Below, piece by piece: positions 1 through 64,000 of a stretch of DNA of 64,000 nucleotides. The translations under genes and the position numbers were made by a program. The notes below the pieces were generated by a model. It was not told the DNA's origin and searched no databases. It worked only from the letters and a program-made list of their open reading frames with translations. The stretch is taken from the IMG/VR virus record IMGVR_UViG_3300029969_000011. The stretch is one strand, 5' to 3'. Source of the stretch: a virus (Duplodnaviria > Heunggongvirae > Uroviricota > Caudoviricetes). Each line of letters starts with the position of its first letter. The stretch's first letter is position 1.

Positions 1-72
1 TTTCTATATATATTATATCATAATATATAAAAAAAGTCAAAGAATTTTTAGTTCTTTGACTCTCAAAATCAG

Positions 73-708
73 TTATGTGAACTCAATATCATAGATTTTC
101 TTGGAGAATTTATGTCTCTTAAAGGTAATATGACCGCCGATTTCAAGTCTTTCCCAGTCTCCCTCTGATATTTTATAGGTCTGATATTCTCCTTCCTCAT
201 CTACTCCGATAACTTCGTACCATTTATCTGTGCCGCGGCGCCGCTTATCTCCGAGTTGAGGGTTGTCAACATCATATGGAAGGTCGCAAGGCTTTTCGCA
301 AGGAGTAGACCCCTCTAATCCGCTATTATCTATTGAGCCATTGTTGCACCATTCATTAGTCTTGTAATGATAGCGGGTAGTATAGTAATACTCATAATGA
401 TACTTCTCAGAATGATAGTGTCCATCTGAGTCTGTGTATGCAGACTTGTCAACTACCTTCTTCTGATGTCGTATTTGTTCTGTCCAAATATCATATGCAT
501 CTGCTGGCGGCCACCATTCAGATGTATGTGAGCAAGCTTTATAGCGTTGTACAGGTATATCCCAGTTCCAACGCAGATGCTCGATTGTCATTGAACCTGT
601 GACTGGTATGGAGAGAAATATGATAATACTCGCAAGTATAGTTATAGCTATTGCTCCGATACAGCCCTCTTCGTGGTCGTAATAAAACTCTTTAATACGC
701 TCTATCAT
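73..708 (-). CDS. hypothetical membrane protein (N-terminal TM helix)
   Basis: 211-aa ORF; hydrophobic N-terminus GAIAITILASIIIFLSIPVTG; tiles with neighbouring minus-strand ORFs. Confidence 0.45.
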   Translation of the reverse strand: MIERIKEFYYDHEEGCIGAIAITILASIIIFLSIPVTGSMTIEHLRWNWDIPVQRYKACSHTSEWWPPADAYDIWTEQIRHQKKVVDKSAYTDSDGHYHSEKYHYEYYYTTRYHYKTNEWCNNGSIDNSGLEGSTPCEKPCDLPYDVDNPQLGDKRRRGTDKWYEVIGVDEEGEYQTYKISEGDWERLEIGGHITFKRHKFSKKIYDIEFT

Positions 709-1016
709 AGCTTATTGTATCCTTTCTCTTGATGCTCCGCCGCCAAGTCAAGAAGAGACTGCGGAGCGACTCGTCCCTCTTTCTCATAGTACCTGTTAAT
801 TTGTGCTGGTCTTGCGATAAGAGTTGTGACCAGCCTGTTTGTGATTGCATTATAGATGATAATGATGCCAGTATCGGTTACGCAATGTATCTCAGGACCG
901 TCTTTATGACCTCTATCCCAGTAGAACTTTTCAATAACATTGCCATAACCGATGACATCGTGGATGAACTTCTCGCGTGAGCTACGCTCATTTTTATAAT
1001 GGCTTGTTCTCTCCAT
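705..1016 (-). CDS. hypothetical protein
   Basis: 103-aa ORF, 4-nt overlap with downstream gene, same strand as operon. Confidence 0.4.
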   Translation of the reverse strand: MERTSHYKNERSSREKFIHDVIGYGNVIEKFYWDRGHKDGPEIHCVTDTGIIIIYNAITNRLVTTLIARPAQINRYYEKEGRVAPQSLLDLAAEHQEKGYNKL

Positions 1017-1317
1017 TTCTTATAAGCTCCTCTCTGTAAGGACATCCTTCGCAAGTATCTGTGTTACATTCGCCGCACCAAGCGTTTGCAGGAATAGGAT
1101 TTTCAATGGGCATATTTTCATAAGGCTTTTTAAGTTCTCTTTCCATAAACTCTTCGTCCTCCTTCTGTACTCTCTTAAACTCTGCGATTACTTTTTCGCT
1201 AAAACCTTGGAATGGTCTGTACTCATATTTGCACCCCTCACAAGTGCTGGCACCGCATTCGCCGCACCAAACACCAAGAGCGTTCCAACCTATTCCATCT
1301 TTGTGTAAGCCACTCAT
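994..1317 (-). CDS. Cys-rich zinc-ribbon protein (two CGEC...CEGC motifs)
   Basis: 107-aa ORF with duplicated CxxC-x-CxxC modules. Confidence 0.45.
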   Translation of the reverse strand: MSGLHKDGIGWNALGVWCGECGASTCEGCKYEYRPFQGFSEKVIAEFKRVQKEDEEFMERELKKPYENMPIENPIPANAWCGECNTDTCEGCPYREELIRNGENKPL

Positions 1318-1658
1318 TCCATTTCCTCCATTTCCTTTTCAAGGAGCTTCTTGAACTCCATAACTCTCTGAATGTACCAAGGCTCCTCCATAGTCTTCTC
1401 GATAAGCTCCTTGTTATTCTCAATCCACTCAACGCACTGGCGGCGAGTCTTCTGGATAGTAATGCAAGTACCAGAGTAGAGGTCTGTTGCCGCCCACTTA
1501 GTCCAGCCTGCACGCTTAGTGCAAATCTTGTGGAAACCGATTGTGTAGTCGTCATTTGCCCAACCAGAGACAATCTTAATGGGCTTTTCAGCCTTGTCTA
1601 TAAGTCTGATTGGGAATGTGTGCATATGAAAACCCATTAAGATACCTCCTTTAATCAA
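1314..1658 (-). CDS. hypothetical protein
   Basis: 114-aa ORF tiling between 994..1317 and 1651..2502; alternative-frame ORFs 1212..1640/1238..1573 rejected. Confidence 0.4.
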   Translation of the reverse strand: MIKGGILMGFHMHTFPIRLIDKAEKPIKIVSGWANDDYTIGFHKICTKRAGWTKWAATDLYSGTCITIQKTRRQCVEWIENNKELIEKTMEEPWYIQRVMEFKKLLEKEMEEME

Positions 1659-2502
1659 TCCATTTAAGTAAAATCTGACAATGCGTATTGTCTACGAGGT
1701 CTATGTCGAAGTCCTCCTTAACCTTTTCCTTTACGAAAGGAAGGATATACTGTCTTGCATAGACGATTTCATAGTTGCCGTTCTCGATTATTTTATTGAG
1801 TAAGTCCTCAAAGTAGATTGGGAAATAGTTTTCTCTTACTTCTCTCTCCCAGTTCTCGATATAACGATACTTCATAAGGAAGTGAAGAACGTCTTTATTT
1901 TCAACTTCACAGCTTCTTTCATCTGCATCATAGCCGTTATGAACAAGGAAATTCTGCCACTGTTTTGTATCAAACTCGTGTATTTTATCATAATACTTGT
2001 TCCAATATTCATTACGGAAATTATGAATACCGCTCTGTGTATGTTCTACTATTGGGTTAACAAGATTTACAGACCTGTCAACCATCATATCTCTGATAGC
2101 GATATACTTATAGTTATCATTAAGAACGTGATTCCAGAAGTCATCAATTTCCTCATCAGTGCAGTAAGAATAAACCTCGTGGATAACGCTACTAAGATTA
2201 AGGAGATAATTCTCTTTTACTTGAACTCCTCCAAGGTTTACTGCCGCCTTCATAAAAGGACAGTTTGTTAATGCCCTGTCGAGCATCTTCTCGTTATTAT
2301 CGACTCCGATGAATTTAACGTTCTCATTATGCTGAAGATACAACTGCTGATAAGCTTTGTCGATAAGTGCTCCGTCAGCACAACCGAAGTCAACAACTGC
2401 GTCTATCTTTTCATTTTCAAGAAGTGGTATCCAGAACAGTTTGTCGTCAAGCGACTTCTGCATACCTTCTATATATGTTGTATAATTATCAATAGCTGTC
2501 AT
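1651..2502 (-). CDS. class I SAM-dependent methyltransferase
   Basis: 283 aa; motif I VVDFGCADGALID (DxGxGxG-like); preceded by consensus promoter. Confidence 0.55.
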   Translation of the reverse strand: MTAIDNYTTYIEGMQKSLDDKLFWIPLLENEKIDAVVDFGCADGALIDKAYQQLYLQHNENVKFIGVDNNEKMLDRALTNCPFMKAAVNLGGVQVKENYLLNLSSVIHEVYSYCTDEEIDDFWNHVLNDNYKYIAIRDMMVDRSVNLVNPIVEHTQSGIHNFRNEYWNKYYDKIHEFDTKQWQNFLVHNGYDADERSCEVENKDVLHFLMKYRYIENWEREVRENYFPIYFEDLLNKIIENGNYEIVYARQYILPFVKEKVKEDFDIDLVDNTHCQILLKWID

Positions 2503-2534
2503 TTAACATCTTTCCTTTCATCTTTTCTATATAT

Positions 2535-2563
2535 ATTATAACATAAAATATAAAAAATGTCAA
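2535..2563 (-). promoter_or_regulatory. σ70 consensus promoter (TTGACA 2558-2563, 17-bp spacer, TATAAT 2535-2540, read on minus strand)
   Basis: Reverse complement of 2535-2563 reads TTGACA-17 nt-TATAAT; one instance of the repeated intergenic cassette. Confidence 0.6.
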
Positions 2564-2608
2564 ATTTTTATTAAAAAGAAAAGGAGCATTACTGCTCCTT
2601 TCTCTCTT

Positions 2609-7349: not shown

Positions 7350-7499
7350 TTTAATCCTCCTTTTCAACAGATGCCGCCTCAGCCTTGAACAGAAAAACCT
7401 GCTCACGCATTTCCTTATTAGCATCTTCTAACTTTTCAAAAGCCTTTATTCTTATCCACTTGTGATTAAATTTTGCATATACTACAAACATTATCTCAC

Positions 7500-7578
7500 T
7501 TCTTTCTCATTTTCTATATATATTATATCATAATATAAAAAAAAAGTCAAAGGTTTTTACGCCTTTGACTTTCATAAA
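7500..7578 (-). promoter_or_regulatory. fused intrinsic terminator + σ70 promoter cassette
   Basis: Minus-strand reads GAAAGTCAAAGGcgtaaaaaCCTTTGAC-T9 hairpin, then TGATATAAT extended -10. Confidence 0.6.
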
Positions 7579-9156
7579 TTAGTCTTCCTTCTTCTCGATT
7601 AACTTACTGCCGAGAACGCCACCGAGGATTGACTGAATGTCAATACCTGTTGAGCCCTTCAAGCCATCATTAACCTGATTGAGGGTTGTCATTATATCGC
7701 CTGTGAGCTTAGCTGTGTTACCTTCACCGTACATAGTGATTTTGTCAATCTGTGCCATAGGTGATGCGATTGCTCCAGCGATTGCAGGAAGCTGCTCGAA
7801 GTAAACCTTGAGTGCTTCAATCTGCATATCCATCTTAGCAGCGTCGCCGTACTGCTTCATAGCTTCAGCCTTCTTGAGGATACCCTCGGCTTCAGCCTCT
7901 GCCTTAGCAAGGAGAGCTGCCGCTTCAGCTTCACCCTTTGCCTTAATACCTGCTGCTTCAGCTTCCATAGCTGCCTGCTGTGCGAGAGCGGCTGCCTTAC
8001 GTGCCTCTGCCTTCTGCTGCTCTTCGTAAAGAGCTGCTTCTGCAGCGACCTTCTTAGCTTCTGCTTCACGCTCTGCCTGAACCTTCTGAGCCTCTGCCTG
8101 ACGCTCAATTTCGTTCTTCTTAGCTTCTGCTGACTTCTGACGCTCGAACAAGTCTGCTTCTGCCGCCTTCTGTGTTTCGATGAGACGAGCTTCAGCTTCC
8201 TGCTGTCTTGCGTACTTGTCTGCTTCTGCCTTCTTCTTGATTTCTGCTTCAAGAGCCTTCTCGGTGATGGCTACATTACGCTCCTTCAACTCGATTTCCT
8301 TTTCGAGCTTAGCAAGGTTTGCATCAGCGGTTGTAGTCTCAACAGTCTTACGCTGTTCCTGCTCCTGAATCTGGTATGCAGCGTCGGCTTCTGCCTTCTT
8401 GATGTCTGCCTGCTTCTTGAGTTCTGCCTTCTGAATAGCAAGCTCATTCTTCTTCTTAGCGATTTCTGTGTCTGCCGCAACCTGTGCATCGTTGGCATCC
8501 TTCTGTGCCTTAGCCTGAGCGATTGCGATTTCCTTTTCAGCATCTGCCTTAGCGATTGCCGCCTTCTTCTGAATCTTTACGGTATTGTCGATACCGAGGT
8601 TCTCGATAAGTCCCTGCTCATCAGAGAAATTCTGAACATTGAATGAAACAATTTCGAGACCCATAGCCCTGAAGTCAGGACCTGCATTTTCCGCAACCAT
8701 TTCTGCGAACTTCTTTCGGTCATTTACCATCTCTTCCAAGGTCATCTGACCGATGATTTCACGCATATTACCTTCAAGCACTTCTCGTGCTACCTTCGCG
8801 ATGTCTGTGACGTCCTTATTAAGGAAGTTCTCTGCCGCGATTGATAAAAGTTCTGGATTGCTGGATACCTTTACGTTTACATTACCATCAGCAATTACAT
8901 TGATGTAGTCTGCCGTTGGAACTGAGTTGGAAGTCTTTACGTCTATCTGAATTAACTGGAGAGTTAACTTATCCAATCTTTCGAGGAATGGAATCTTGAT
9001 AGATGACTTACCGATGACGGTCTTTTTACGAAGACCTGAGATGATGAATGCGGTGTCTGGCGGAGCCTTTACATAACCCGTCGCTATAATTACGATGAGT
9101 AAGATGATGGCGAGACCGCCGAGAATGAGTCCAAGATTAGCTAAAATTACTGACAT
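7579..9156 (-). CDS. flotillin-like SPFH/band-7 domain protein
   Basis: 525 aa; N-terminal TM, SPFH core, long Ala/Glu/Lys-rich coiled coil (EA repeats) typical of flotillin/YqiK. Confidence 0.65.
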   Translation of the reverse strand: MSVILANLGLILGGLAIILLIVIIATGYVKAPPDTAFIISGLRKKTVIGKSSIKIPFLERLDKLTLQLIQIDVKTSNSVPTADYINVIADGNVNVKVSSNPELLSIAAENFLNKDVTDIAKVAREVLEGNMREIIGQMTLEEMVNDRKKFAEMVAENAGPDFRAMGLEIVSFNVQNFSDEQGLIENLGIDNTVKIQKKAAIAKADAEKEIAIAQAKAQKDANDAQVAADTEIAKKKNELAIQKAELKKQADIKKAEADAAYQIQEQEQRKTVETTTADANLAKLEKEIELKERNVAITEKALEAEIKKKAEADKYARQQEAEARLIETQKAAEADLFERQKSAEAKKNEIERQAEAQKVQAEREAEAKKVAAEAALYEEQQKAEARKAAALAQQAAMEAEAAGIKAKGEAEAAALLAKAEAEAEGILKKAEAMKQYGDAAKMDMQIEALKVYFEQLPAIAGAIASPMAQIDKITMYGEGNTAKLTGDIMTTLNQVNDGLKGSTGIDIQSILGGVLGSKLIEKKED

Positions 9157-9751: not shown

Positions 9752-10684
9752 TTATCTGCTCTTAAGCATATCTCTTACGTATGTCATTGTAAGGCTACCG
9801 CAAATCTTACCAAAGTTCTCGCAAGCTGCGACTACCTCTGGCTCCTCCTTACGGCAATCCTCATACATCATCTTAGGAAGTACCTTTGCGATTGCTCCCA
9901 TATCGTGCTCGTCCCAATCAGGTCTAAGCTGACCCTCATCGACAAGCTTCTGAAGACACTTCTCAGTTCTACGAGCAGTTGCAACACTTGCTATGTACTG
10001 TCTCTCAGCCTCTCTCTTCTTGAGCTCCTCTGGGTCTACAGGCTTGTGATGGTCCTGATGAACCTCGGAAAACTTCTCTGCGACAATCTTAAGGTATGAA
10101 GGAGTTCTGCTGTTCTTGTTGTCAAGTCTGTCCTGAGACTTAATAACGACGCCCTCACCACAAGGCTCTGCGCCGAGCATAGACTGACCTACAAGCTGGT
10201 AAACAGTATCCCAACCTCTGAACTCACCTGTGTAGAAGATAGGAACAAAGTAGATTACCTGCTGAGTAAGCTGTACTGCGTTCTCAAGTCCCTTGAAGAT
10301 TGCGTATGTGTCCTCGTGAGGGAGGTACTCCTCTGTCTGAGTATCCCATACGTCGAACATATAGAAGTTCTTGTATCTGTTCTCAGGGTACTTGATTGTA
10401 TGCTTTGTAAGCCACTCGCCGAAGATTACATATCTGCCGTGCTGTGTAAGCATATCAATCTGAGAAACGTTGAGCTGCTGTGCCCAGTTCCAGAAACCGT
10501 TGAGTGTGTTAGCCTCATTAAGCTGGTTCTTACGAGAAAACGCAAGAACAGTATTTGTTGTGGGGTCATATGTGAATGATGCATTTGAGCCGTCAACCTT
10601 CTCGGTAATCGTTACCTGCTCACCGAGTGAAAAGACGGTATCATACTTCTCCTTGAAACGCTCGATATCTACATACTTTTTCAT
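9752..10684 (-). CDS. ATP-dependent RNA ligase (T4 Rnl2-like)
   Basis: 310 aa; N-terminus MKKY...; nucleotidyltransferase motif I TEKVDGSN (KxDG); size and layout like Rnl2. Confidence 0.65.
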   Translation of the reverse strand: MKKYVDIERFKEKYDTVFSLGEQVTITEKVDGSNASFTYDPTTNTVLAFSRKNQLNEANTLNGFWNWAQQLNVSQIDMLTQHGRYVIFGEWLTKHTIKYPENRYKNFYMFDVWDTQTEEYLPHEDTYAIFKGLENAVQLTQQVIYFVPIFYTGEFRGWDTVYQLVGQSMLGAEPCGEGVVIKSQDRLDNKNSRTPSYLKIVAEKFSEVHQDHHKPVDPEELKKREAERQYIASVATARRTEKCLQKLVDEGQLRPDWDEHDMGAIAKVLPKMMYEDCRKEEPEVVAACENFGKICGSLTMTYVRDMLKSR

Positions 10685-10749
10685 TTCTTTTTACCTCTTT
10701 CTCATTTTCTATATATATTATATCATAAAATATAAAAAATGTCAAATTT

Positions 10750-11118
10750 TTATATGAATTTTCCGCCGTTAATTATTCTTAGGTCCTTGTATTCAGGGAG
10801 TTCGAGAAGTTCATCATCATTTATTGCTCGATAATAACCATTATTTGTAGGGAAACAAACAGCAGTTTTGTCACATACAAGTTTACCACAGATACGGCAT
10901 ATTCTACCAACGCAGAGTCCGTACCAGTCGTCATAGTTAATGAGAACTTTCTCATAGTCATGCTTATGGTTAGCTTTCTTAACCTTTTCTTTTACCTTCT
11001 TCTTACCTGTTGAAGGTTTATTTTGCGCCGCCTCACCATAAAAATTATTAAGAGAAGAGCGACTGCCGCCCTCTCCATCCCAACATTCATTTACCTTTCT
11101 GTAATCTCCCTTGCCCAT
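10750..11118 (-). CDS. Cys-rich hypothetical protein
   Basis: 122 aa; CVGRICRICGKLVCD. Confidence 0.4.
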   Translation of the reverse strand: MGKGDYRKVNECWDGEGGSRSSLNNFYGEAAQNKPSTGKKKVKEKVKKANHKHDYEKVLINYDDWYGLCVGRICRICGKLVCDKTAVCFPTNNGYYRAINDDELLELPEYKDLRIINGGKFI

Positions 11119-12004: not shown

Positions 12005-12120
12005 TTATTTTTCTCCTTTAACTGATTTTCTATATATATTATAACATAAAATAAGCGGAAAGTCAAATTTTTTATTGACTCTCCGCTTTTATAGTTAAAT
12101 ATTACGTTTCAGTTGTCGCG

Positions 12121-14359: not shown

Positions 14360-14423
14360 TTTCTTCTCTCCTTTCCTTTATTATAATAATATTATATCAT
14401 AGATTATTTATAAAGTCAAATTT

Positions 14424-14906
14424 TTAACTGTATCTGTAAGCTACAAAGATAACGTTATTCTCCTTCTCGACTTCTTCCAGTGTTTTCTTCATCACTGACC
14501 AGTCGCCGCCACCAAGACCGCAACCAAAAAGATAAGGAATAGCTATCGGCATCTGAGCGTAATCAGCAGGAATACATTCAAGTTCTCTGTAGCCGAGTAT
14601 CATATCAGTAAAACCGTCCTTTACTGCCTGATAATCTGTATAGCATTTATCTCTGCCATAGTCATCTTGACCAAAGATATTCCATATTTCGTGTCCATCT
14701 GCGGTCCAAGCACAACCTGTACCTAATGGAGACTTGTGATTGATAGCCCAGTATTCATCAATGAACTCCTTATAGACATCAAAGACTTCGGGATAGCGGT
14801 CTTTAATTGTCCTTGCTAAGCCGCCGCCCATAACTCCTCGACAGTTTACCTGATGAGCTATAATGTGTACGTCTGTATTTAAAACATCACCGTGGGTAAT
14901 TATCAT
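14424..14906 (-). CDS. macrodomain protein (ADP-ribose binding/hydrolase)
   Basis: GDVLNTDVHIIAHQVNCRGVMGGGLARTI aligns to the macrodomain GDI..vDvIVNAAN..l.GGGGV..AI motif; later GCGLGGGDW; start ATG 14906 with GGAGGAAG RBS. Confidence 0.6.
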   Translation of the reverse strand: MIITHGDVLNTDVHIIAHQVNCRGVMGGGLARTIKDRYPEVFDVYKEFIDEYWAINHKSPLGTGCAWTADGHEIWNIFGQDDYGRDKCYTDYQAVKDGFTDMILGYRELECIPADYAQMPIAIPYLFGCGLGGGDWSVMKKTLEEVEKENNVIFVAYRYS

Positions 14907-17828: not shown

Positions 17829-17900
17829 GATAATTATTTTTGTTTGCTGTTTTTATCTTACTTATATATTATACTATAAAATATAATTTTTGTCAAATAT

Positions 17901-18455
17901 TTAATTGCACCTGTCTTCGTAAAAGGTTGCTACCCTACGAAAAATAGAGTCTGGCGCCGCCACAAATTCCTTCTGCCACTCTCTTTTGAAAGTTTTGAAG
18001 TATTCATCGACTTCCATATCGCCGAAAACATAAACTCTTATATTATTTCGTCTTGAGAAAACTTGTCTATGATAGACTATCTCCTTAAAGACTTCTAAGT
18101 CTCGCTTATCCTTAATCGAAATCGTAAGTCCATCAATGCCCCAGAGGTTCTTTTCTCTTTTATAAAGATACTCATATAACTCATAAGCATTGGTATAAAC
18201 ATACACCTTTTTGATATTAGGATAAGTTCCTTTTAAAAAGGAAGCTGTCATACAAGGGTCTGCATATGCAAATGGTTCGCCGCCCGTCAAGAAAATGTTT
18301 TCAGCTTCTTCAAGCTCTTCATTCGTAACGACGGGAATTTCATTTACATTATACTGCTTATTGCAACAAAGCGGGCAATTTCTATCACAACGATTTGTAA
18401 TCATTATGTGAATATTACGCTTCGTTATATCTGTCTTTTCATTTAATTGAGCCAT
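17901..18455 (-). CDS. radical SAM activase, NrdG-like (anaerobic RNR activating protein) or QueE-like
   Basis: 184 aa; CDRNCPLCCN = CxxxCxxC followed by CN as in NrdG (CPGCYN); GGEP motif. Confidence 0.5.
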   Translation of the reverse strand: MAQLNEKTDITKRNIHIMITNRCDRNCPLCCNKQYNVNEIPVVTNEELEEAENIFLTGGEPFAYADPCMTASFLKGTYPNIKKVYVYTNAYELYEYLYKREKNLWGIDGLTISIKDKRDLEVFKEIVYHRQVFSRRNNIRVYVFGDMEVDEYFKTFKREWQKEFVAAPDSIFRRVATFYEDRCN

Positions 18456-18695
18456 TTAAACTCGTCCTTTCCATTTGATTTTCTATAAATATTATACTAT
18501 ATTTTATAAAAAAAGTCAAATTTTTGAGGGAAAAATAAGGGCAACGTCGCAACGCTACCCTTACTCAGCTTTCGCTGATGGTATCAATTTAAACACGATA
18601 GGTTTGTGGCGGACCGCCGCCTGTATAAACGGGGGAGTCGAACCCCACGTAACCAATTTCTGAGGGTTTACATTTGGTTTGCTGAACTATCGTTA

Positions 18696-19671: not shown

Positions 19672-19698
19672 ATTATCAAGACTCTCTATACCTTGCGG

Positions 19699-21909: not shown

Positions 21910-22760
21910 TTCTCTTTATTTTCTATAATTATTATAGCATAAATTATAAAAAATGTCAAATTTTTGATTTCTAAGTCATTTCGTAAGCACTCTCACCGCG
22001 TGAAGGTAGACTTAATTGAGAGTATTTCTTCAACAATCTTGGGTGCCGCCACATCTCCTGCACACAGGAGACAGGGTACTCGAACCCCTCCATCGCCAGT
22101 TGCTGAAAGGAATTTCAACCTAATCTCATTAGTTATAAAGCCACTGAGCTGTAGCTATGCGAATAATTTGCCGCAATCAACGGGCGACTATTCTAATCGC
22201 CGTCATAACCAACACAAGTTATGAACCATTGTAATGTCGTCAGGTTCCCACACTTACGCAGTAAACGCGCCGCTTAACCACTTGGTTTAGGTATGTTCAT
22301 AACCAAGAAATTTTCCCTTTTACATCGTCAGCAGTAGATGTCGTAATTTTATCGGTACTTCCCCGAATGGACATTGCGTGCCTATCGTACTCACGGTAAT
22401 GTACGTAACCGCTGCCGTGCCAGCCAATACACGGATTTATACTGCCATCACACAGTCGGGCAGGTCTGTGATGGGTCTCTGCCCAATTTGGTTTTTGTGG
22501 TTTTAAACAGTCCAATGAGTAAACCTCAACTCAACTGTAGAGAATATTTGGTGGTTCGCTCTCTCTCAGCGAAGGTGTAAAGGGAGTTTAAACCACTTCC
22601 TCGTGGGGTTTTAACGTCTTTTCCTTGACAAGTCTCGCCGCAACCAGTACCATTTAAGGTACGCCAATCACTACGGGTTGCACATCCTTACTTTACCTGC
22701 CCAACAGGTCGGCGGTTGGACCCGCCAGTGTCCCTTTTATTCTCTTTAAGTAATTGGCAA

Positions 22761-22835: not shown

Positions 22836-23045
22836 ATTAGTTCTTATTTTTAAGTATAATTTATTATAACATATTCTAAGAAAAAAGTCAAATTTTTAAT
22901 AGTGATTGTCTTTGTAGGGGTCTGTCTTCTTCTTATCATGGGTTGCGGCGATGATGTCTGGCATAACCTCTATGAGCTTCCAAAGAAGTACGGTTACGCA
23001 AACAACTATTAGGTACTGCATCAGACAGACCTCCTTTCAAGACAT

Positions 23046-23201: not shown

Positions 23202-23342
23202 AAATTCTCCAAGACGCCTTTACATTTACCTTTTAAACATTTTAAGTGTTCTATTGTAAGAAATGATTGCAGGATGCGTCTTTCATTCTTATAAAATAAT
23301 TATAACATATTTTATAAAAATTGTCAAATTTTTGAGTGCTTA

Positions 23343-24961: not shown

Positions 24962-25006
24962 TTTCTCACCTCACTATAAATATTATATCATATTTTATTT
25001 AAAAAG

Positions 25007-25471
25007 TCAAATTTTTGAAAACTCTTGAATATCATAATCGTGGTTTCTAAACCACTTATGTATCATAAGTCTCTCAGAACAAAGCTGTTCAGGTTTCTCA
25101 TAAACTATGAGAGCGGCAACAGGTTCTTCTTCAAAATGTAAGAAGTCTTGAACCCGATGTCCAATGCTTTCAAACCTCTCCATTATATTATCATAATTGA
25201 GGTATTTGAGCTGTAAATAATAATCGTGCAGAAAGTTACAAGTGTTTGGATTCTGCTTACATGACTTGCCGCCACACTCAGCGATGTTCTGAAAATCTGG
25301 TACAAATGGCTCTGCTCGGCACCCAATAAGGACACCATTCTTATCAACATAAGTTGACTTCATATCGCCGTTAATATGATACCAAGCAGGGTCAGATATT
25401 GCTGTACTTAATGGAATGATATTAGGAGTAAAGAATCTTATTTGGTAAAAATAAGATGTTACTATTTTCAT
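25007..25471 (-). CDS. hypothetical protein
   Basis: 154-aa ORF. Confidence 0.4.
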   Translation of the reverse strand: MKIVTSYFYQIRFFTPNIIPLSTAISDPAWYHINGDMKSTYVDKNGVLIGCRAEPFVPDFQNIAECGGKSCKQNPNTCNFLHDYYLQLKYLNYDNIMERFESIGHRVQDFLHFEEEPVAALIVYEKPEQLCSERLMIHKWFRNHDYDIQEFSKI

Positions 25472-25602: not shown

Positions 25603-25667
25603 TTAAAATCGCTCCTTTTTAATAATGTAATAATATTATATTATATTTTATTTAAAAAGTCAAATTT

Positions 25668-25970
25668 TTAATTGGTCTTTTCAGCGAAAGTCCAAGCCTT
25701 TCTTCCGTCAGCAAGAATATAAATTCCATTTATCTGGAACTTCTCAGGCTTCTCATAAACAATCTCAACCTTGTGCTTAACGCCGTCAAGTCTGTCCTGC
25801 TCAAGGCTTGTTCTGAACTCCTTACCGCTCATCTTAAAAATTTGATTGTCGGTAACTTTAAGTGATGTTACCCCATTCTCATCTTCAACTTTTTCGAGCA
25901 TTGTTACATTCATAAGAACCTTAGACTTTACTATATCCCAAGGCTGGAATCCTCTCTGTTTTAAATCCAT
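25668..25970 (-). CDS. hypothetical protein
   Basis: 100-aa ORF. Confidence 0.4.
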   Translation of the reverse strand: MDLKQRGFQPWDIVKSKVLMNVTMLEKVEDENGVTSLKVTDNQIFKMSGKEFRTSLEQDRLDGVKHKVEIVYEKPEKFQINGIYILADGRKAWTFAEKTN

Positions 25971-26407: not shown

Positions 26408-26500
26408 ATATTTCCTCCCGTTTGATTTTCTATAAATATTATATAATAATATTTTTAAAAAGTCAAATTTTTAATCATAATATTCCGTTGCAAATTTATC

Positions 26501-27064: not shown

Positions 27065-27162
27065 TGGCTTTCCCTCCTTTCTGATTATATAAATATTATA
27101 TCACAGAAAAAATAAAAAGTCAAGAAAAAGAAAGAGGGATTCTTCCGAACCCCTCAAAGCTA

Positions 27163-28908: not shown

Positions 28909-28991
28909 TTTATCACCTTTGATATAAATATTATACTATAAATCAGAAAAAAAGTCAAAGGTTTTTAAGCCTTTGACTTATAAAAGTTAGA

Positions 28992-31671: not shown

Positions 31672-31755
31672 TCTAATCTCTCCTTTACTTTTATAATAAT
31701 ATTATACTATAAAATATAAAAAAAGTCAAAGCTTTTTTAGCTTTGACTTTCTTAA

Positions 31756-33091: not shown

Positions 33092-33253
33092 TCTCTTTCC
33101 TCCTTACTTAGAGTTGCCGAAGAAACCATCAAGGACAGCTTTAGTAAGGACATATACAATTATGCCAAATAATATCAATCCCATTTGAATTTCTCCTTTC
33201 ATCTTTTGATATAAAAATTATATCATAAAAGAAAGGGAAAGTCAAATAATTGA

Positions 33254-33643
33254 TTATCCCTTTCTGATGTTATATCCATACTGGTCGGAGTGATAAAATT
33301 CTATCCAGTATTTTTCTTTTTCGGTCTGTTCTTCTTTTGGGCAAACCTCTACGATTTCCCAAGTGAAGTTCTCCAAACCTTCTTTGAACATAGCGTCATA
33401 GATTTGACCAGCTATTCGTTCAATATTACAGCCGCGCTTAGCATGGGTACGCCAACGGTCTATAAACTTTGTTGTTTTACCAATATAAACTTTTTCATCA
33501 TTTATATTAGTAATCTTATAAATGCCGCCCTTATCTTTCTTGTCACCAAGAACTCGTTTAAAGAGCTCCTCTATTTGAGTTTTATAGTAAGTCTCATATA
33601 GGAGTTTATAAAAGATTTCTGGACGGGAGAAGCCAGGTGCCAT
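33254..33643 (-). CDS. GIY-YIG homing endonuclease (possibly the C-terminal part of a TAG-readthrough fusion starting at 34285)
   Basis: GIYKITNINDEKVYIGKT...R..H, catalytic E near the end; no RBS at its ATG and the frame stays open upstream through three TAGs to ATG 34285. Confidence 0.55.
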   Translation of the reverse strand: MAPGFSRPEIFYKLLYETYYKTQIEELFKRVLGDKKDKGGIYKITNINDEKVYIGKTTKFIDRWRTHAKRGCNIERIAGQIYDAMFKEGLENFTWEIVEVCPKEEQTEKEKYWIEFYHSDQYGYNIRKG

Positions 33644-36006: not shown

Positions 36007-36200
36007 TTCCTCCTTTTCATTCTTTTATTAAATTATAACACAAATATTTTAAAAAGTCAAATAATTAAAAAAAAGAGTAGTCAATGACTACTCCTTTCGT
36101 TTGCGTGTTCCCATTTCGATATTTTCTGTTTTTGCCTTTTTACTTTTCTCGCTTACGCAATTGAGTTGCCAAGTCAATCACATATCTTTTCTAATGGGTA

Positions 36201-38819: not shown

Positions 38820-38885
38820 TCATACCTCTCCTCCAATTTGATTACTGTAAACATTATACCACAAGAAAAAGAAAAAGTCAATCAT

Positions 38886-39458
38886 TTAAGATTGACTTTC
38901 TTCTTCATCAAGTATTGCATCTTCCAAATTGGCAGCTCGTCTTTCCAAAACACCAATCTTATATATTAATTCATTCATATTAGGTTCTGCTGGACGCTCT
39001 TGCCATTCAGGAAGTGCAGGATAACGTCTTTTAAGAACATTATAAGTAATTCTATCGTAGTTAATGCCAGACTCATCGTGATAACCTTGATAAATAAAGT
39101 AAATGAAGTCGGGTCCTATAAGCCCCTCTGCAACTAACTCTTGATATTCTTCCCAAGTTTCATTGTAGTGATAAGGAAGGTATTCCCATTTATAGGTTAC
39201 ATCATTTGAATCTGTATCCTTGATATTGCCGCGAGCAAATTCTCGTGCAACTAATTCATCAATCTTAGCTTCTGTTAATGAAGCAATAAAACGATAGACA
39301 GTTTGTTTATCTTCATCACCATTAACATTAGAAAAGTCAAAATTCATTTCTGCTTTTCTTTCTCCGTCATTAGGCTCAAAAGTATATGTTTTCGGGGTGG
39401 CCTTTTCACCAGGCTCAGCCCCGATATCATATTTAAACTTCTTTGTAAAATCAGACAT
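38886..39458 (-). CDS. hypothetical protein
   Basis: 190-aa ORF. Confidence 0.4.
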   Translation of the reverse strand: MSDFTKKFKYDIGAEPGEKATPKTYTFEPNDGERKAEMNFDFSNVNGDEDKQTVYRFIASLTEAKIDELVAREFARGNIKDTDSNDVTYKWEYLPYHYNETWEEYQELVAEGLIGPDFIYFIYQGYHDESGINYDRITYNVLKRRYPALPEWQERPAEPNMNELIYKIGVLERRAANLEDAILDEEESQS

Positions 39459-40610: not shown

Positions 40611-40703
40611 TTTGCTATATCCCTCCCAAAAAATTTCACTATTTAAATAAGGTATCATACCTTATATTATAATATTAACATAAATTTTGAAAAAAGTCAA
40701 ATA

Positions 40704-41807
40704 TTAAACTGGTTCGTTGTATATAAATTCTGTTAATGAATTGCCATTATAAATAACTTCTGTCATTTGATTTCCGTCATAATAAAATGGAACACCAGTT
40801 GGAGGTGGTGGCGGATTTTCTGGTATATCAAGCATAACTGGAATATACGGGAATCCGTTATTTCTGTTCGGGTCAATGTGCCAATCTGTTGTTGCAGCTG
40901 AGTCAGTGCTGATTATGAAACCTTTGCTGTCAAGGTCGCTTTTGGACTTCATTTCTATTGTAGTTGCGCCAATTGTGCCTGTAGGTAATGTACCGCTGTA
41001 TTTATCAGTATTAACTAAGACGGAACTCATTTGTCCATAGTCCAAACGGAATCCGCCGGAAATATCGGCATTTATAACAGTCTTTTGAAAAGTAGTAATA
41101 TAAGAAAATCCAGCTATACCAGATACGTTACCTTCAATATAACAATAGTAAAAAGCACCATATAACTCATAATCATTGTTTTCATAGGTTGCACGAATAT
41201 TACAATATCTAATTCCAGCTTGCCAGTTCACTCCATTTGTAATCGAGCCGTCACCATTAAATGTTAGATTAAAACTACATACATCGATATATCCTAACAT
41301 ATATGTAACGTCAATTATAGCATTATATTCTTGACCAACAGAATATTTCTAAGCTGCTTCAAGACTACCTAAAAAACGACAATACCTTATAAAAGTTCCA
41401 CTACCAGAAGTTTGTGCTGAAGCCAATAATGCCACCGAAGCTCTCTATGAAGTATTTCCAGTCATATGTGCTGCAACACCATTAGAATCGACTATGAAAT
41501 CAATGAAATCAAGATATTCAACTCGACCACTGGCTTCATGTCCAGAAATTATAAATCCATAGTAGCTATAAGTGCCTGAAGTATTAGTAACTTTGGCATT
41601 TTTTATCTACCAGCCATTACCGTTGATAAATCCACGCAGCGGTATGTTATGCACTTCTCCATCTGTGTAGTAGTCACGCATATCAAATACGCCGCCACCC
41701 TCTGGTAATTCAGTATACTTATTATCTGCTGTGGTGCATTGTAGAAATTCTTCCCAAGTCGTAGGCTTGTAAGGGTCTGCAGATGTGCCGCTGCCCGTTA
41801 TCGCCAT
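40704..41807 (-). CDS. tail-associated structural protein with in-frame TAG codons
   Basis: Frame-2 ORFs 40704..41300 and 41607..41807 joined across TAGs; ATG 41805-41807 with GGAGGTGG RBS overlapping the TAA of the upstream fibre gene (TAATG). Confidence 0.45.
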
Positions 41808-47565: not shown

Positions 47566-47958
47566 TAAGTATCAACCTCCTCTTCTGCATCAGGGTCGAA
47601 TTCGGGGTGGTCTTCCTAATAAGCTGCGACAAGTTTATCATACTTAGTCATTAATTCATTTACTTTGTTAAGTAAATATTCAACAGCATCAGAAAACTCT
47701 ATATCTGTAACAAAGAATATTTGGTCTTTGTACTAATTCATAAAGTCTGGCTGTTCAGCGAGAGCAACATAATCATCCCAGGTTATGTCCTACTCATGCA
47801 TTTTACGCTGTTCATTTGCCATTTCCTTTGCACCTCCGTACAATTTGTTTTCTACATAATAAAGTAGAGATTTGAGTCGAAACGTCTAATCCTTTACTTA
47901 TTGATATTATAGCATAAAAATAGAGAGAAGTCAAGTGTTGACTTCTCTCTTTTTAATA

Positions 47959-55717: not shown

Positions 55718-55762
55718 CTGCTGACCGCTTGAAGGAAGATTACTTGAACTTGAAAGCTCTCC

Positions 55763-56419
55763 CTTAATGATAACTGATGTACCATCTGCGCCCTTTACAA
55801 CACCTGCATCAAGTGATTGGTTATTGCTAAGAGTGATGATAAGGTGTCCAGAAGCATTAACTGTTGCTCCAGTAATTGAAACACCATCAGTACCGTTTGT
55901 ACCATTAATACCATTAGTACCATTAGTACCGTTTGTTACAGTAAATGTTGTTGTGTTTGTATCGGTAAATGTAATTGTATAGGTATCTACATTACCTGAT
56001 GTACTTGTCTTTTCGATTGAAGCGATACCTACGCCATTTGTTCCATTAGTACCATTTGTTCCGTTTGTACCATTGGTACCATTTGTAACAGTGAAAGTAG
56101 CGTGTCCACCATTTGTATAGTTAATGGTGTATGTATCAACATTACCCTCTGAAACAGGACCAGTAATAGAAGAAATACCATTACCAGTTGCACCCGTTGC
56201 ACCAGTCTGACCAGTAGAACCTTTAGAACCATTGGTTACTTCATAAGTTGAGGGAGAACCGGTTGTATAGTTTATTTGGTATGTATCAGTTGCACCTTCA
56301 ATACCTGGCTAATCGCCGCCTGTACTTGAAAGCCAAACTATAGATTCAATACCTTTTCCGTCTTTACCAGCTGGACCTTGGCCGCCACCGCCACCATTAA
56401 CGAAAGGATTAAAACTCAT
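55763..56419 (-). CDS. collagen-like repeat fibre protein (N-terminal portion or separate paralog)
   Basis: ATG 56417-56419 with GGGAGGTGAG RBS; MSFNPFVNGGGGGQGPAGKDGKG...(NGT)n with the same VDTYTI.YTNG...TFTVTNG repeats; one TAG; in-frame TAA at 55763-55765. Confidence 0.4.
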
Positions 56420-56967: not shown

Positions 56968-57046
56968 TCTCAATTCCTCCTTTAATATAATAACATTCTG
57001 TACAACAATAGTCAACATTTCGATTACAATAGCAATTAAATTGTTG

Positions 57047-57075
57047 ACTTTTTACCTCAATTATGTTATACTTAG
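57047..57075 (+). promoter_or_regulatory. σ70-like promoter for plus-strand operon (TTGACT-17-TATACT)
   Basis: ttgactttttacctcaattatgttatact in divergent intergenic region. Confidence 0.5.
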
Positions 57076-59048: not shown

Positions 59049-59337
59049 TATGTTTCATCCCGATTTATTACCAGAGTCAAGCGACCCAGAAGGTTCAAAA
59101 AGATATGAAGCTACAATCTTTGTTAATTACTTCCCTGCTGAAAAAGAGGGCGTAAAACATATTGATTTAATATCTACTAATAAATTATTTATTGTTCAAG
59201 CATACGGTCCTGACTTCAAAAAAATATCATCAAGTGTATTTGATGGTATCGTTCTCAAAGAAAAGAATGGTAGTTATTCTTGGTGGAGACATATAAAAGC
59301 AAAATATCGTTATCCAATAATTAAATATGAAGATTAA
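59041..59337 (+). CDS. hypothetical protein
   Basis: 98-aa ORF. Confidence 0.4.
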   Translation: MGNMFHPDLLPESSDPEGSKRYEATIFVNYFPAEKEGVKHIDLISTNKLFIVQAYGPDFKKISSSVFDGIVLKEKNGSYSWWRHIKAKYRYPIIKYED

Positions 59338-59395
59338 GTCAAGAGTAAAATCTTGACTTTTCTTTTTATTTGTGCTATAATTATAATATAAATGA
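59338..59395 (+). promoter_or_regulatory. fused intrinsic terminator + σ70 promoter cassette (plus-strand version)
   Basis: gtcaagag-taaaa-tcttgac + T-run; TTGACT (in hairpin 3' arm)-17 bp-TATAAT; AAAGGAG RBS before 59413. Confidence 0.55.
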
Positions 59396-62159: not shown

Positions 62160-62632
62160 TGAGCGAAGTATTAATAGCAGCTATTTTTGCTGGATTAGGT
62201 GGTTTAGTAGGCGCAGTCGGAAAAGTTATTGTTGATGTAATTCGAGCCAAGCACGAGCCTGATTAGGCAGACTTGGAATTAAAAGACGAACTACAGCGTG
62301 AAAAAGAAAAGAACGACACGGCAATCGCAACTTTCACAGACTTCGGGAAAGACATCAAGAAATGTGTGGAAGATATGAAAACGGAAATGAATTAGAAATT
62401 TGAGGATATGAATGAAAAGATTACTGATTACAGAGAAGAAACTCGTAATATAAATAAATCTGAATTAAGACATTCAATTACTCAAATTTATTATGAACGC
62501 AAAGATGCAAAAACCCTTGACCTCAGAACAAAAGATGACCTTTGTTCTTTATATGAAGCGTATAGTTCAATCGGTGGCAATTCATTTGCACACGAGCTGT
62601 ATGAAGAAATGATGAGTTGGGACGTCAAATAA
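62159..62632 (+). CDS. membrane-anchored coiled-coil protein with two in-frame TAGs
   Basis: ATG 62159 overlapping the upstream TGA; N-terminal TM VLIAAIFAGLGGLVGAVG; in frame (249 nt) with ORF 62408..62632. Confidence 0.4.
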
Positions 62633-62754
62633 TAAAAGAGTGGCCACGGCGCCACTCTTTTTTTATACTTTAACCTGATTTTGATAAAATCATTTCTAAT
62701 TTATTAGATGAACTTGTTGTCAATTTTACTTGTTATTACACTCCAAGTGAATAA

Positions 62755-62790
62755 TTTGACTTTTACAAATTTTTGGAGTATAATATTTAT
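62755..62790 (+). promoter_or_regulatory. σ70 consensus promoter (TTGACT-17-TATAAT)
   Basis: ttgacttttacaaatttttggagtataat upstream of nrdH-like gene. Confidence 0.5.
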
Positions 62791-62821
62791 AGAATAAATT
62801 AGAAAAGGAGTGAGTGCAAGT

Positions 62822-63040
62822 ATGGAAAGTATTACATTGTATTCAACAGGATGCCCAAAGTGTAATGTTCTTGAAAAGAAATTAACTGCCGCCGGCATTG
62901 AGTATGAGGTCGTAACTGACGAGAAAGTCATTGCAGATGTATGCGATACTATTGGTACAGATTTTCTTCCTATTTTGGAAGTAAATGGTGAATATTATGA
63001 TTTTGCTGCGGCAATAACATGGGTAGGTGAAAGAAGCTAA
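62822..63040 (+). CDS. nrdH: NrdH-like glutaredoxin (thioredoxin fold, CPKC)
   Basis: LYSTGCPKCNVLEKKL redox motif; immediately upstream of nrdD. Confidence 0.55.
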   Translation: MESITLYSTGCPKCNVLEKKLTAAGIEYEVVTDEKVIADVCDTIGTDFLPILEVNGEYYDFAAAITWVGERS

Positions 63041-64000
63041 TGCAGATAAATATTAAAGTTTCAAAGAATTTCACAACATAGTGGAATAAATTACAGAATG
63101 AGTTCGGCACTCAACTTGCAGACTTAAATGGTTTTGGGGATGAATAGCTTTCTTACGGTGACTTCATTGATAATTTCGTTGATGTCCCCGTTGTTGCAGA
63201 CAGCTCAATTGACTCAAACAGTAATGTAAGAAGAAAAGATATGGTAACTCTCCTTTCTGAAATGCCTAAGCCTCACAGAAAGCTTATGTCATTCCAGAAG
63301 ATTTATTACGAAATGCAGAAGGAATATGGTTTTAAGGCTGCTAATGAGTGGTTGCGCCGCGATTGGATGGGAGAAATCTATATGCACGATGCAGACACAG
63401 CAACATTCAAGTCCTATTGTTTTGCTTATGATTTAAAGGATTTGGCAGAAAAAGGACTATTCTTCCTTGGAGATACCTTCAATCCTAAGCCTCCTAAGCA
63501 TTTGACTACTTTTGTTGATTTCGTAAAGGAATATATTAACTTTGCAAGCAATAGAACTTCAGGAGCCGTTGGCTTACCAAACCTTATTCCTTATATGTAT
63601 TACTTCTGGAAGCAGGATTGGAACTGTGCTTATCTTGGTATGCAACAGTTTGAAGACTATGCAAAACAGAATATTCAGAGATTTATTTATGCTGTTAACC
63701 AGCCTTGCGTAAGAGATGGTCAGCAGTCAGCATTTACAAATACTTCTGTATTTGATAGAGAATATCTTATGGCGCTTTTCGGCGGTTCAGAGTTCCCAAA
63801 TGGTGATATGATGGTTGACCACATTGAAGGAATTATGGATTTCCAAAAGATGTATATGGAAGTTATGGCAGACGTTCGTCACGAGAATATGTTCACTTTC
63901 CCTGTTTCTACCATGTCTATGGTAAGAAAGAATGGTAAGTTCCTTGACGAAGAATTTGCAGAATGGGCTATCAAGCATAATATGCAATGGTCTGATAGTA
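63039..64000 (+). CDS. nrdD: anaerobic ribonucleoside-triphosphate reductase NrdD (5' portion, runs off window), with in-frame TAGs
   Basis: ATG 63039; ...WMGEIYMHDADTATF...FNPKPPKHLTTFVDF resembles E. coli NrdD HERGDIHYHDLDYSPF...EPPKSISTA; two TAGs near the N-terminus; partner NrdG-like activase at 17901..18455. Confidence 0.55.

Follow-up and report, generated by a model that had tools for sequence, protein, structure and literature searches.

The 64,000-nucleotide stretch of phage DNA analysed here (the window) carries 26 copies of a repeated cassette, 23 on the minus strand and three on the plus strand, ten of which are fused terminator-promoters (types F1 and F2). The cassettes probably serve a virulent, TAG-recoded phage as promoters, either early or constitutive, which would be read by the host sigma-A/sigma-70 RNA polymerase, with the ten fused copies doubling as intrinsic terminators. 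Promoter activity, termination, early timing and a role in recombination are predicted from sequence. Within this TAG-recoded genome, the cassettes occupy the early/tRNA region, which uses the standard code, and the helicase has its closest cultured relatives in Clostridium, Moorella, Listeria and Bacillus phages, which have Firmicutes hosts.

A strict regular expression, TTGAC[AT]-N17-TATAAT, returned 24 sites, and a PWM trained on those 24 detected the 26 copies with scores of 20–64 bits, far above the shuffle maximum of 5.5 bits (20 shuffles). All 24 sites of the original prediction match true copies, whereas 47906-47934 (minus) and 57044-57072 (plus) had been overlooked, and two of its spans, 18456-18510 and 24962-25006, exclude the -35 boxes at 18514-18519 and 25005-25010. 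Its statement that nearly every intergenic gap bears a cassette was too strong: with approximate gene calls, a cassette is present in 25 of the 61 gaps that span 40 nt or more, or in ~25 of 44 after inter-tRNA gaps are set aside. The cassette is ~45–55 bp long with the consensus aaaaatTTGACWttttttata..TRTGnTATAATatwtatagaaaa. The spacer is 17 bp in all 26 copies, as had been claimed, and the hexamers and spacing also fit the proposed σ70 promoters ending in TATAAT or TGnTATAAT, with TG at -15/-14 in 19 of 26. The reading of the cassettes as consensus housekeeping-sigma promoters, TTGACW-17-TRTGnTATAAT, is supported. The T-run belongs to the promoter consensus, hairpin-less copies included, and the spacer and +1 region show 59% identity versus 40% expected from composition. 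Copies 12, 2535, 7522 and 10717 are 89–96% identical even beyond the hexamers, and their flanking genes are unrelated. For most copies, 20–37 nt separate the -10 box from the start codon, with an RBS between; three copies directly precede tRNA genes, which begin 21–97 nt downstream.

In the arrangement that we propose, each cassette would be a complete expression linker, which starts with the stop codon of the upstream gene and an A-rich upstream element, continues with TTGACW, the T-rich 17-bp spacer, TRTGnTATAAT and a conserved AT-rich start region (ATATATAGAAAA), and ends with an RBS and a start codon ~30 nt downstream. Ten copies have the -35 region repeated upstream in inverted orientation, and the transcript arriving from the preceding gene would fold into a 9–15 bp hairpin with the A-rich element as its loop, the -35 hexamer as its 3′ arm and the promoter spacer as its U-tract. 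Acting as an intrinsic terminator, this hairpin would end the upstream mRNA ~22–28 nt ahead of the next start site. A conventional terminator immediately before the promoter would insulate four further copies likewise, and the remaining copies may be internal promoters that supplement read-through transcription.

In the seven F1 copies, the 3′ arm of the hairpin ends in TTGAC and the spacer T-run coincides with the predicted U-tract. The copy at 12..64 (minus) contains a promoter at 12-40 (TTGACT-17-TGaTATAAT) and a hairpin at 32-64 (GAGAGTCAAAGAA/TTCTTTGACTTTT; dG -13.3, z -4.1) followed by a U-run, and the upstream ORF stops at 73-75. Five others lie on the minus strand: 7522..7573 (promoter 7522-7550, hairpin 7542-7573; dG -14.7, z -4.8), which has an identical copy in L006; 15415..15465 (hairpin 15435-15465, overlapping the upstream stop codon; dG -15.8, z -5.9), whose hairpin is preserved in the L008 ortholog with one A-U pair changed to G-C; 28930..28979 (hairpin 28952-28979; dG -12.5, z -5.3); 31701..31753 (hairpin 31719-31753, 15 pairs; dG -17.6, z -5.8); and 38853..38901 (hairpin 38872-38901; dG -13.8, z -4.3), the 5′ arm of which is within the final codons of the upstream ORF. 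The latter three have orthologous fused copies at L002:19623, L002:17243 and L002:9940, respectively. The seventh, 59336..59381 (plus), combines a hairpin at 59336-59359 (dG -10.9, z -3.8) with a promoter at 59353-59381. In the three F2 copies, all on the minus strand, the hairpin arm passes through the -35 box into the spacer. These are 12038..12088, with a 14-bp hairpin (12053-12088; dG -22.3, z -8.4) and the distal spacer UAUUUUAUG as its tail; 33217..33265, in which the hairpin GAAAGGGA...TCCCTTTC (33230-33265; dG -15.7, z -4.1) encloses the -35 box, with its 3′ arm within the spacer and the upstream stop codon in the loop; and 47906..47950, the sole copy within the TAG-recoded late region, with a 13-bp hairpin (47922-47950; dG -18.7, z -6.1).

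Four minus-strand copies carry a separate conventional terminator just upstream: 18491..18564 (promoter 18491-18519; hairpin and U-run at ~18535-18564, at the tRNA array end), 27095..27155 (promoter 27095-27123; terminator 27134-27155, its U-run adjoining the -35 box), 36032..36098 (promoter 36032-36060; terminator 36070-36098), a layout common to L002 and L003, and 2535..2602 (promoter 2535-2563, TTGACA-17-TATAAT, 12/12 match). The last had been cited as promoter-only, but possesses a separate, GC-richer terminator at 2579-2602. The other 12 copies are promoter-only, and the stop codon of the upstream gene often falls within them. On the minus strand, the upstream TAA ends 4 nt before the -35 box at 10717..10752 (stop 10750-10752, the TAA of a TAAAAAT element; control fold dG -4.2), 14391..14426 and 25635..25670 (control fold dG -4.0), and 3 nt before it at 40672..40706, where the -10 box is TAATAT with a TG extension; at 24982..25010, the stop codon of ORF 25007..25471 is the TGA within the -35 hexamer TTGACT. 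The copies at 21931..21959, 22863..22891 and 23299..23327 precede tRNA-Met (21836-21909) by 21 nt, tRNA-Gly (22761-22835) by 27 nt and two tRNA-CTA suppressor genes (23046-23201) by 97 nt, respectively. The copy at 17868..17903 (TTGACA-17-TATAAT) has a spacer without a T-run, and 26438..26466 is a PWM match. On the plus strand, 62756..62784 has a separate terminator ~95 nt upstream (62634-62661), and 57044..57072 (TTGACT-17-TGtTATACT) would serve the plus-strand block, back-to-back with a weaker divergent promoter for minus-strand genes at 56987..57015 (minus; TTGACT-17-TGtTATTAT). The AGTCAA upstream of 57044..57072 is no terminator arm, but belongs to the divergent promoter as its -35 box.

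The claim that the 3′ arm of a hairpin supplies the -35 box is therefore true for ten of 26 copies and false as a general rule. Because ten copies are fused, four have a separate terminator and 12 have none, the related proposal that every gene is insulated by a promoter coupled to the upstream terminator fits only about half of the units. Within the fused subset, the sequences support a -35 hexamer that doubles as 3′ stem arm and a spacer T-run that forms the terminator tail. The ten fused hairpins are predicted to be stable (dG -10.9 to -22.3 kcal/mol, z -3.8 to -8.4), in contrast to the promoter-only controls (~-4), and in an independent scan they belong to the best terminator-like candidates of the coding strand. 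The pattern GTCAA-N3-22-TTGACWTTT-N14-TATAAT matches seven times against 0.01 expected. Among 108 non-redundant clade cassettes, 29 bear GTCAA at most 35 nt upstream of the -35 box versus 3.2 expected (maximum of 9 in 500 shuffles), and the stem extends inward by at least two pairs in 72% of the GTCAA-bearing clade cassettes versus 11% by chance. The inner stems comprise at least 14 different sequences, all complementary. The nine nucleotides after TTGAC contain 7.9 T in fused versus 5.9 in non-fused copies (Mann-Whitney p = 5e-10, a value inflated because the cassette sets contain orthologs), and T occupies the sixth -35 position in 22 of 24 fused versus 59 of 84 non-fused copies. The folding energies, the covarying inner stems, the variable half-site spacing and the additional T after TTGAC together argue for real hairpin terminators. 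The predicted role of the T-run as terminator tail holds in the fused subset, where the run is significantly longer; its presence in hairpin-less copies means that it is not terminator-specific. The stems are GC-poor (3–6 G-C pairs), and termination may therefore be partial. In copies 38853 and 33217, the 5′ arm lies inside the upstream coding sequence, and ribosomes there could hinder folding of the hairpin.

An unlikely alternative is that the hairpins are neutral by-products of template switching, quasi-palindrome mutation or inverted partial copying, so that the cassettes are just promoters with inefficient termination. The low G-C content of the stems, the 12 of 26 cassettes that do without any hairpin and the T-run already present in the promoter consensus are in line with this. 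However, a related 58-kb contig (L002/L008), whose helicase is 78% identical, retains the hairpins at the orthologous positions, where the flanking DNA is ~70% identical and the changes are one-sided and compensatory, preserving the pairs. The longer T-runs and the preference for T at the sixth -35 position in fused copies also speak against neutrality, as do the conventional terminators that often replace a missing fused hairpin (2535, 18491, 27095, 36032) and the recurrence of the fused design in unrelated IMG/VR phage contigs, in which 24 of 121 have at least three extra pairs versus 5 expected.

We give still less credence to the hairpins being 3′-end stabilisers or processing sites on a polycistronic read-through RNA rather than termination signals. 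Early phage mRNAs often undergo intergenic processing, 3′-terminal hairpins shield mRNA against exonucleases, and the stems directly follow stop codons; but stems of 9–15 bp fall short of the length of typical RNase III substrates, and the adjoining U-tract, enriched in fused copies, is a signature of intrinsic termination. Post-transcriptional and termination roles are not mutually exclusive.

It is very improbable that a sigma factor or RNA polymerase encoded by the phage, instead of the host housekeeping holoenzyme, recognises the cassettes. The conserved spacer and +1 region are reminiscent of phage-specific promoters, but the hexamers, spacing and TRTG extension are the exact sigma-A/sigma-70 consensus, the scanned window proteins (part of the ORFs) gave no sigma factor or RNA polymerase match, and the host-dependent early promoters mapped experimentally in Kayvirus have an identical consensus (PMC7698491). 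That GTCAA...TTGAC is the site of a dimeric regulator occluding the -35 box, with no RNA terminator, is scarcely credible: a palindrome over the -35 box with invariant half-sites is the classic operator layout, but in the window the half-sites are 3 to 15 nt apart, a range impossible for a rigid dimer to span, the sequence between them is unconserved and covaries so that pairing persists, the stem often extends outward via A/T pairs or into the spacer, and T-tract enrichment is a property of terminators, not of operators.

As long repeats of similar sequence that lie at gene boundaries, the cassettes probably also act as homologous recombination joints for gene-module swaps, as proposed for the PeSL (promoter-early stem-loop) cassettes of T4-like phages. 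At cassettes 40672 and 47906, the comparison with L001 switches from unalignable sequence to ~100% identity precisely at the 5′ edge, and a 135-nt indel relative to L006 starts right after the conserved 5′UTR of cassette 7522. Junctions at cassette edges are confounded with gene-boundary junctions generally.

The design closely resembles PeSL composite promoter-terminator cassettes (RB49/phi1, PST/T4, nt-1/KVP40; Arbiol et al. 2010, PMC2839356; Comeau et al. 2014, PMC4122927) and Firmicutes-phage early promoters, and it is not unprecedented, because one PeSL subclass has a stem-loop overlapping the -35 box (PMC2839356). PeSLs likewise occur in many intergenic copies, clustered among small accessory genes and located at indel or replacement junctions of close relatives, and combine the upstream stop codon within AT-rich sequence, a promoter close to the sigma-70 consensus with an N17 spacer, a stem-loop by which transcription from upstream is terminated or attenuated, and a Shine-Dalgarno sequence with a start codon. 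In contrast, the window phage belongs to an unrelated, TAG-recoded lineage with nearest cultured relatives that have Firmicutes hosts; its promoters have the Gram-positive-type TRTG extended -10 box, and its stems are AT-rich and incorporate the -35 hexamer itself, the spacer being the putative U-tract, whereas RB49 stems are G-run/C-run and mostly lie between the boxes. Mini-circle formation and promoter and terminator activity have been shown experimentally for PeSLs, whereas for the window cassettes such activities are predictions. Staphylococcus Kayvirus has 58 RNA-seq-supported early promoters (TTGACW, 17 bp, TRTGN, TATANT; PMC7698491), dozens per genome in vB_SauM-515A1, which are used by the host RNA polymerase for early genes; there, separate Rho-independent terminators, GC-rich stem-loops followed by poly-T, bound the transcription units, and the available text of that paper does not mention a -35 box that forms part of a terminator stem. 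The T7 CJ and VSV class II terminators, which act as promoters in E. coli (bioRxiv 10.64898/2026.02.12.705533), similarly pack termination and sigma-70 promoter signals, the latter with a TGn-extended -10 box, into one short DNA segment; the same work raises the idea that RNA-released polymerase might reinitiate nearby, and recycling termination is a related known phenomenon (PMC11347151). Those signals are hairpin-less, serve T7 RNA polymerase and were chance finds in constructs, whereas the fused window cassettes, which belong to a natural genome and recur there in conserved form, are predicted to be class I hairpin terminators for a bacterial polymerase.

A strict search for the pattern TTGAC[AT]-N17-TATAAT returns 24 sites in the window, from which a position weight matrix that extends from -12 of the -35 box to +14 of the -10 box was built. 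The matrix identifies 26 cassettes at 20–64 bits, compared with a best score of 5.5 bits in 20 shuffled windows; the cassette repeat is real and far beyond chance. Each copy is named by the low coordinate of its 29-bp core, from the -35 box to the -10 box. Twenty-three cassettes are located on the minus strand (12, 2535, 7522, 10717, 12038, 14391, 15415, 17868, 18491, 21931, 22863, 23299, 24982, 25635, 26438, 27095, 28930, 31701, 33217, 36032, 38853, 40672 and 47906) and three on the plus strand (57044, 59353 and 62756). All 24 sites of the original prediction match real cassettes, with 47906 and 57044 overlooked. Its statement that nearly every intergenic gap carries a cassette is too broad, because rough gene calls place one in 25 of the 61 gaps of at least 40 nt, or in about 25 of 44 when inter-tRNA gaps are excluded.

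The promoter part of the cassette is highly uniform and has the layout of a housekeeping sigma (sigma-A/sigma-70) promoter with an extended -10 box: a TTGACA-like -35 box, a spacer of 17 ± 1 bp, TATAAT and TG at -15/-14. The spacer is 17 bp in all 26 copies, the hexamers match the consensus at 11–12 of 12 positions in 23 copies, and TG occupies -15/-14 in 19 copies; the overall consensus is aaaaatTTGACTttttttatatttTATGnTATAATatttatagaaaa. Outside the hexamers, identity among the copies averages 59%, compared with 40% expected from composition, and reaches 89–96% for copies 12, 2535, 7522 and 10717. Cassettes that lie close together are only slightly more alike than distant ones (Spearman -0.15 for similarity against genomic distance), so local gene conversion leaves no clear sign.

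A near-identity search with 25 kb of the window against cultured phage genomes returned tRNA-sized matches only, and the best protein matches of the helicase (37701–38819) belong to Clostridium, Moorella, Listeria and Bacillus phages at about 30–36% identity. By these searches, the phage is without a close cultured relative. The minus-strand genes of 40704–56419 (about 40.7–56.4 kb) use TAG as a sense codon, and ORFs of 1184, 712, 1129, 431 and 881 codons emerge only when TAG is read through. Among the recoded gene products are collagen-like tail-fibre proteins and an Amidase_2 endolysin. A few early-region genes also contain in-frame TAG (12121–13551, 33254–34285 and 36201–37136); the frame at 33254–34285 (minus strand) needs three sense TAGs and joins a long coiled-coil-like N-terminal part to a C-terminal GIY-YIG nuclease domain.

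Twenty-two cassettes lie within 1–41 kb, the standard-code part, where their neighbours are small genes, genes for RNA repair and nucleotide metabolism, and tRNA arrays; the recoded late block has a single cassette. The ORF that comes first after a cassette is almost always free of in-frame TAG. In most copies, a start codon with a ribosome-binding site lies 20–37 nt past the -10 box, and the preceding gene often terminates inside the cassette. For 10717, 14391, 17868, 25635, 38853 and 40672, the upstream stop is the TAA of TAAAAAT, 3–4 nt before the -35 box (10750–10752, 14424–14426, 17901–17903, 25668–25670, 38886–38888 and 40704–40706, minus strand), and the ORF 25007–25471 stops at a TGA within the -35 hexamer TTGACT of cassette 24982 (24982–25010). 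The 19 tRNA genes form three arrays on the minus strand (18844–24573), and three cassettes precede tRNA genes: 21931 ends 21 nt upstream of a tRNA-Met, 22863 ends 27 nt upstream of a tRNA-Gly, and 23299 is followed at 97 nt by two tandem minus-strand tRNAs with a CTA anticodon (23046–23122 and 23126–23201), amber suppressors that ARAGORN labels 'Pyl'. It thus appears that a host-type early promoter drives the recoding tRNAs.

The neighbouring genes include an RNA-repair set (16347–17828, 9752–10684 and 27776–28699) that consists of a phrog_850 match ('RNA-binding protein'), an RNA ligase and a polynucleotide-kinase-like ATPase. The phrog_850 match may be RtcB-like. Together with the large tRNA set, the RNA-repair genes suggest a defence against host anticodon nucleases. 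An SPFH/flotillin-like protein, a GH113 glycoside hydrolase and a ThyX thymidylate synthase are also encoded (7579–9156, 39451–40446 and 34611–35432), the first two of which are unexpected as accessories of a phage early region.

To classify the hairpins, the 45 nt upstream of each promoter were folded with its first 16 nt, and the resulting hairpins were then folded alone with dinucleotide shuffles as the reference. Four classes are distinguished. In class F1 (12, 7522, 15415, 28930, 31701, 38853 and 59353), the -35 box is fused into the hairpin: GTCAA plus 2–4 variable pairs is matched by their complement plus TTGAC, the stem is usually lengthened by A:U pairs, and the A-rich loop of 5–8 nt and the stem are followed by 7–8 U (7–8 T in the next 9 nt). 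In class F2 (12038, 47906 and 33217), also fused, the 3´ arm runs through or past the -35 box into the spacer, and the tail is formed by the distal spacer, (U)AUUUUAUG. Class S (2535, 18491, 27095 and 36032) has a separate, GC-richer terminator that ends 0–15 nt before the -35 box, and the 12 copies of class P are promoters alone, without a hairpin. The original prediction of a terminator–promoter fusion in each cassette therefore holds for 10 of the 26 copies, as judged by fold energies and shuffles, and is over-generalised for the four with separate terminators and the 12 with none.

The ten fused hairpins have folding energies of -10.9 to -22.3 kcal/mol and z-scores of -3.8 to -8.4, compared with about -4 kcal/mol for two promoter-only controls. 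Their stems of 9–15 bp, where a classical intrinsic terminator would be GC-rich, contain only 3–6 G-C pairs, with the GTC/GAC pairs at the stem base adjoining the U-tract. In an independent scan with a generic terminator search, they rank with the best terminator-like sites of the coding strand. The composite pattern GTCAA-N3-22-TTGACWTTT-N14-TATAAT has 7 matches in the window against 0.01 expected. At the gathering threshold, an Rfam scan recognised the 19 tRNAs only; none of its RNA families matched at the hairpins. Read by eye on the opposite strand, copies 12 and 7522 show no -10 box correctly spaced from the upstream GTCAA taken as TTGAC, as an antisense promoter would have.

Two further candidates were rejected. 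Cassette 57044 stands back-to-back with a weaker divergent promoter (56987–57015, minus strand) at the strand switch (56987–57072), with 28 bp between the -35 hexamers; the AGTCAA upstream of 57044 is the -35 box of that divergent promoter, so the apparent inverted repeat reflects two divergent -35 boxes and is not a terminator. A long-loop hairpin at 62756 is too weak (z = -1.7).

Relatives were drawn from IMG/VR by helicase and by cassette pattern. The same cassette is present in contigs whose helicase proteins share 99%, 78%, 65% and 61% identity with that of the window, and in further cassette-rich contigs (L005, L006, L013, L116 and others). Because the hairpin set had itself been picked for pairing, a separate, unbiased pairing test was applied to 108 non-redundant cassettes. 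Of the 108, 29 have GTCAA in the 35 nt that precede the -35 box, where 3.2 would be expected and none of 500 shuffles gave more than 9; no other GC-containing 5-mer is enriched there. The stem extends inward by at least two pairs in 72% of the GTCAA-bearing cassettes, compared with 11% by chance, and the inner stems comprise at least 14 distinct sequences, all of which are complementary. A 58-kb relative contig with a 78% identical helicase (L002/L008) also keeps hairpins at the orthologous positions: 38853 corresponds to L002:9940, 28930 to L002:19623, 31701 to L002:17243 with an A to G change that yields a G-U pair, and 15415 to L008:3976 with a compensatory change from A-U to G-C. The separate-terminator state of 36032 is likewise kept in L002 and L003, the latter another of the compared contigs.

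The spacer differs between cassettes with and without a fused hairpin. The 9 nt after TTGAC contain 7.9 T in fused cassettes and 5.9 in the others (Mann-Whitney p = 5e-10, a value inflated by the relatedness of the cassettes, although the effect is large), and the sixth -35 base is T rather than A in 22 of 24 fused cassettes compared with 59 of 84 others. This pattern would be expected if the U-tract were selected only where a hairpin exists. An operator palindrome for a dimeric protein would also place inverted half-sites at the promoter; this reading was rejected, as the distance from GTCAA to TTGAC ranges from 3 to 15 nt and the inner stems covary. The N4-type promoter, in which each copy would carry a short conserved hairpin recognised by the polymerase in single-stranded DNA, conflicts with the 16 of 26 cassettes that have no promoter hairpin.

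Several cassettes coincide with joints between the window and its relatives. In comparison with L001, whose helicase is 99% identical, sequence that cannot be aligned gives way to about 100% identity precisely at the 5´ edges of two cassettes, 40672 and 47906, with switch points at window positions 40706 and 47979. Upstream of these junctions, a 380-codon ORF (40704–41846) and the C-terminus of the 1129-codon ORF (47959–51345) have either been replaced or diverged strongly. Identity to L006 is 100% through cassette 7522, and L006 lacks a 135-nt insertion with a 46-codon ORF that lies directly past the conserved 5´UTR of this cassette (window 7364–7499; L006:11108–11113). Around cassette 2535, gene content also differs. 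This is the pattern expected if the cassettes act as homology patches for module exchange, and cassette-edge junctions, seen here in partial relative contigs, are confounded with the general mosaic junctions at gene boundaries.

The best-supported reading is that the cassettes are promoters for the host polymerase with its housekeeping sigma factor; we infer promoter activity, termination and timing from the sequence. In a fused copy, the transcript coming from the gene upstream would fold into the hairpin, whose loop would be the A-rich upstream element of the promoter, whose 3´ arm would be the -35 hexamer and whose U-tract would be the spacer. The upstream transcript would then end about 22–28 nt before the next start site. 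With 10 fused and four conventional terminators, about half of the units would be insulated, and cassettes lacking a terminator would serve as internal promoters on read-through RNA.

Overlapping terminator–promoters have been treated as surprising and tied to polymerase recycling (bioRxiv 10.64898/2026.02.12.705533; PMC11347151), which motivates a more speculative reading of the fused copies as polymerase hand-off devices. Termination would occur inside the next promoter, with the U-tract within the -35/-10 spacer, so a polymerase just off the upstream mRNA would already sit on a consensus promoter and could keep sigma or bind it anew and start another transcript while still on the DNA, as in 'recycling termination'. 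We regard this as improbable; if true, every gene would have separately defined RNA ends, 5´ and 3´, and polymerase flux through the early region would be conserved. The fused design would allow the coupling of termination to reinitiation, a recent proposal, to be tested in a natural system. In this clean, naturally occurring arrangement, as proposed, each component of an intrinsic terminator doubles as a component of the promoter, and the element may be useful as a compact insulator part in synthetic biology.

An IMG/VR-wide scan for the fused geometry finds at least 120 loci. At least three additional stem pairs are present in 24 of the 121 unique matches listed, compared with about 5 expected, which indicates that the fused design also occurs sporadically in other phage contigs. 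Among the matches listed, the geometry appears as single copies in many otherwise unrelated contigs (L010–L129), with 6–8 extra stem pairs in L072, L023, L041, L067 and L083.

The cassette matches almost point for point the published description of the promoter-early stem-loop (PeSL) cassettes of T4-like phages (PMC2839356, PMC4122927). Both occur in many intergenic copies. In both, the preceding gene's stop codon falls within AT-rich sequence, the sigma-70 promoter is close to consensus and has an N17 spacer, and the element finishes at its 3´ end with a Shine-Dalgarno sequence and a start codon. Both have a stem-loop in or beside the promoter as a terminator or attenuator, here fused in 10 copies, adjacent in four and absent from 12 of 26. 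Both are clustered among accessory genes. PeSLs are also found at indel junctions, a tentative parallel for the window cassettes, whose junctions are confounded with gene boundaries. For PeSLs, promoter and terminator activity and mini-circles from inter-cassette recombination were shown experimentally (PMC2839356, PMC4122927). PeSLs were defined in T4-like myoviruses of Gram-negative hosts, a group to which this phage does not belong; the window promoter carries a Gram-positive-type TRTG extension. The early promoters of Staphylococcus Kayvirus (n = 58) share the same consensus of TTGACW, 17 bp, TRTGN and TATANT (PMC7698491). As in an intrinsic terminator, the fused stem-loop abuts a U-rich tract and its pairing is selected. 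Specific to the window cassettes are the TAG-recoded uncultivated lineage, whose nearest cultured relatives are Firmicutes phages, and a uniform geometry with the -35 hexamer as the stem base and the spacer as the U-tract. The cassettes would mark the genes of a recoded phage that are likely transcribed by the host polymerase, the suppressor tRNAs among them. By its sequence features, the element is a PeSL-like composite early promoter-terminator cassette, which would extend such cassettes from T4-like phages of Gram-negative hosts, their sole described bearers, to an unrelated TAG-recoded clade.
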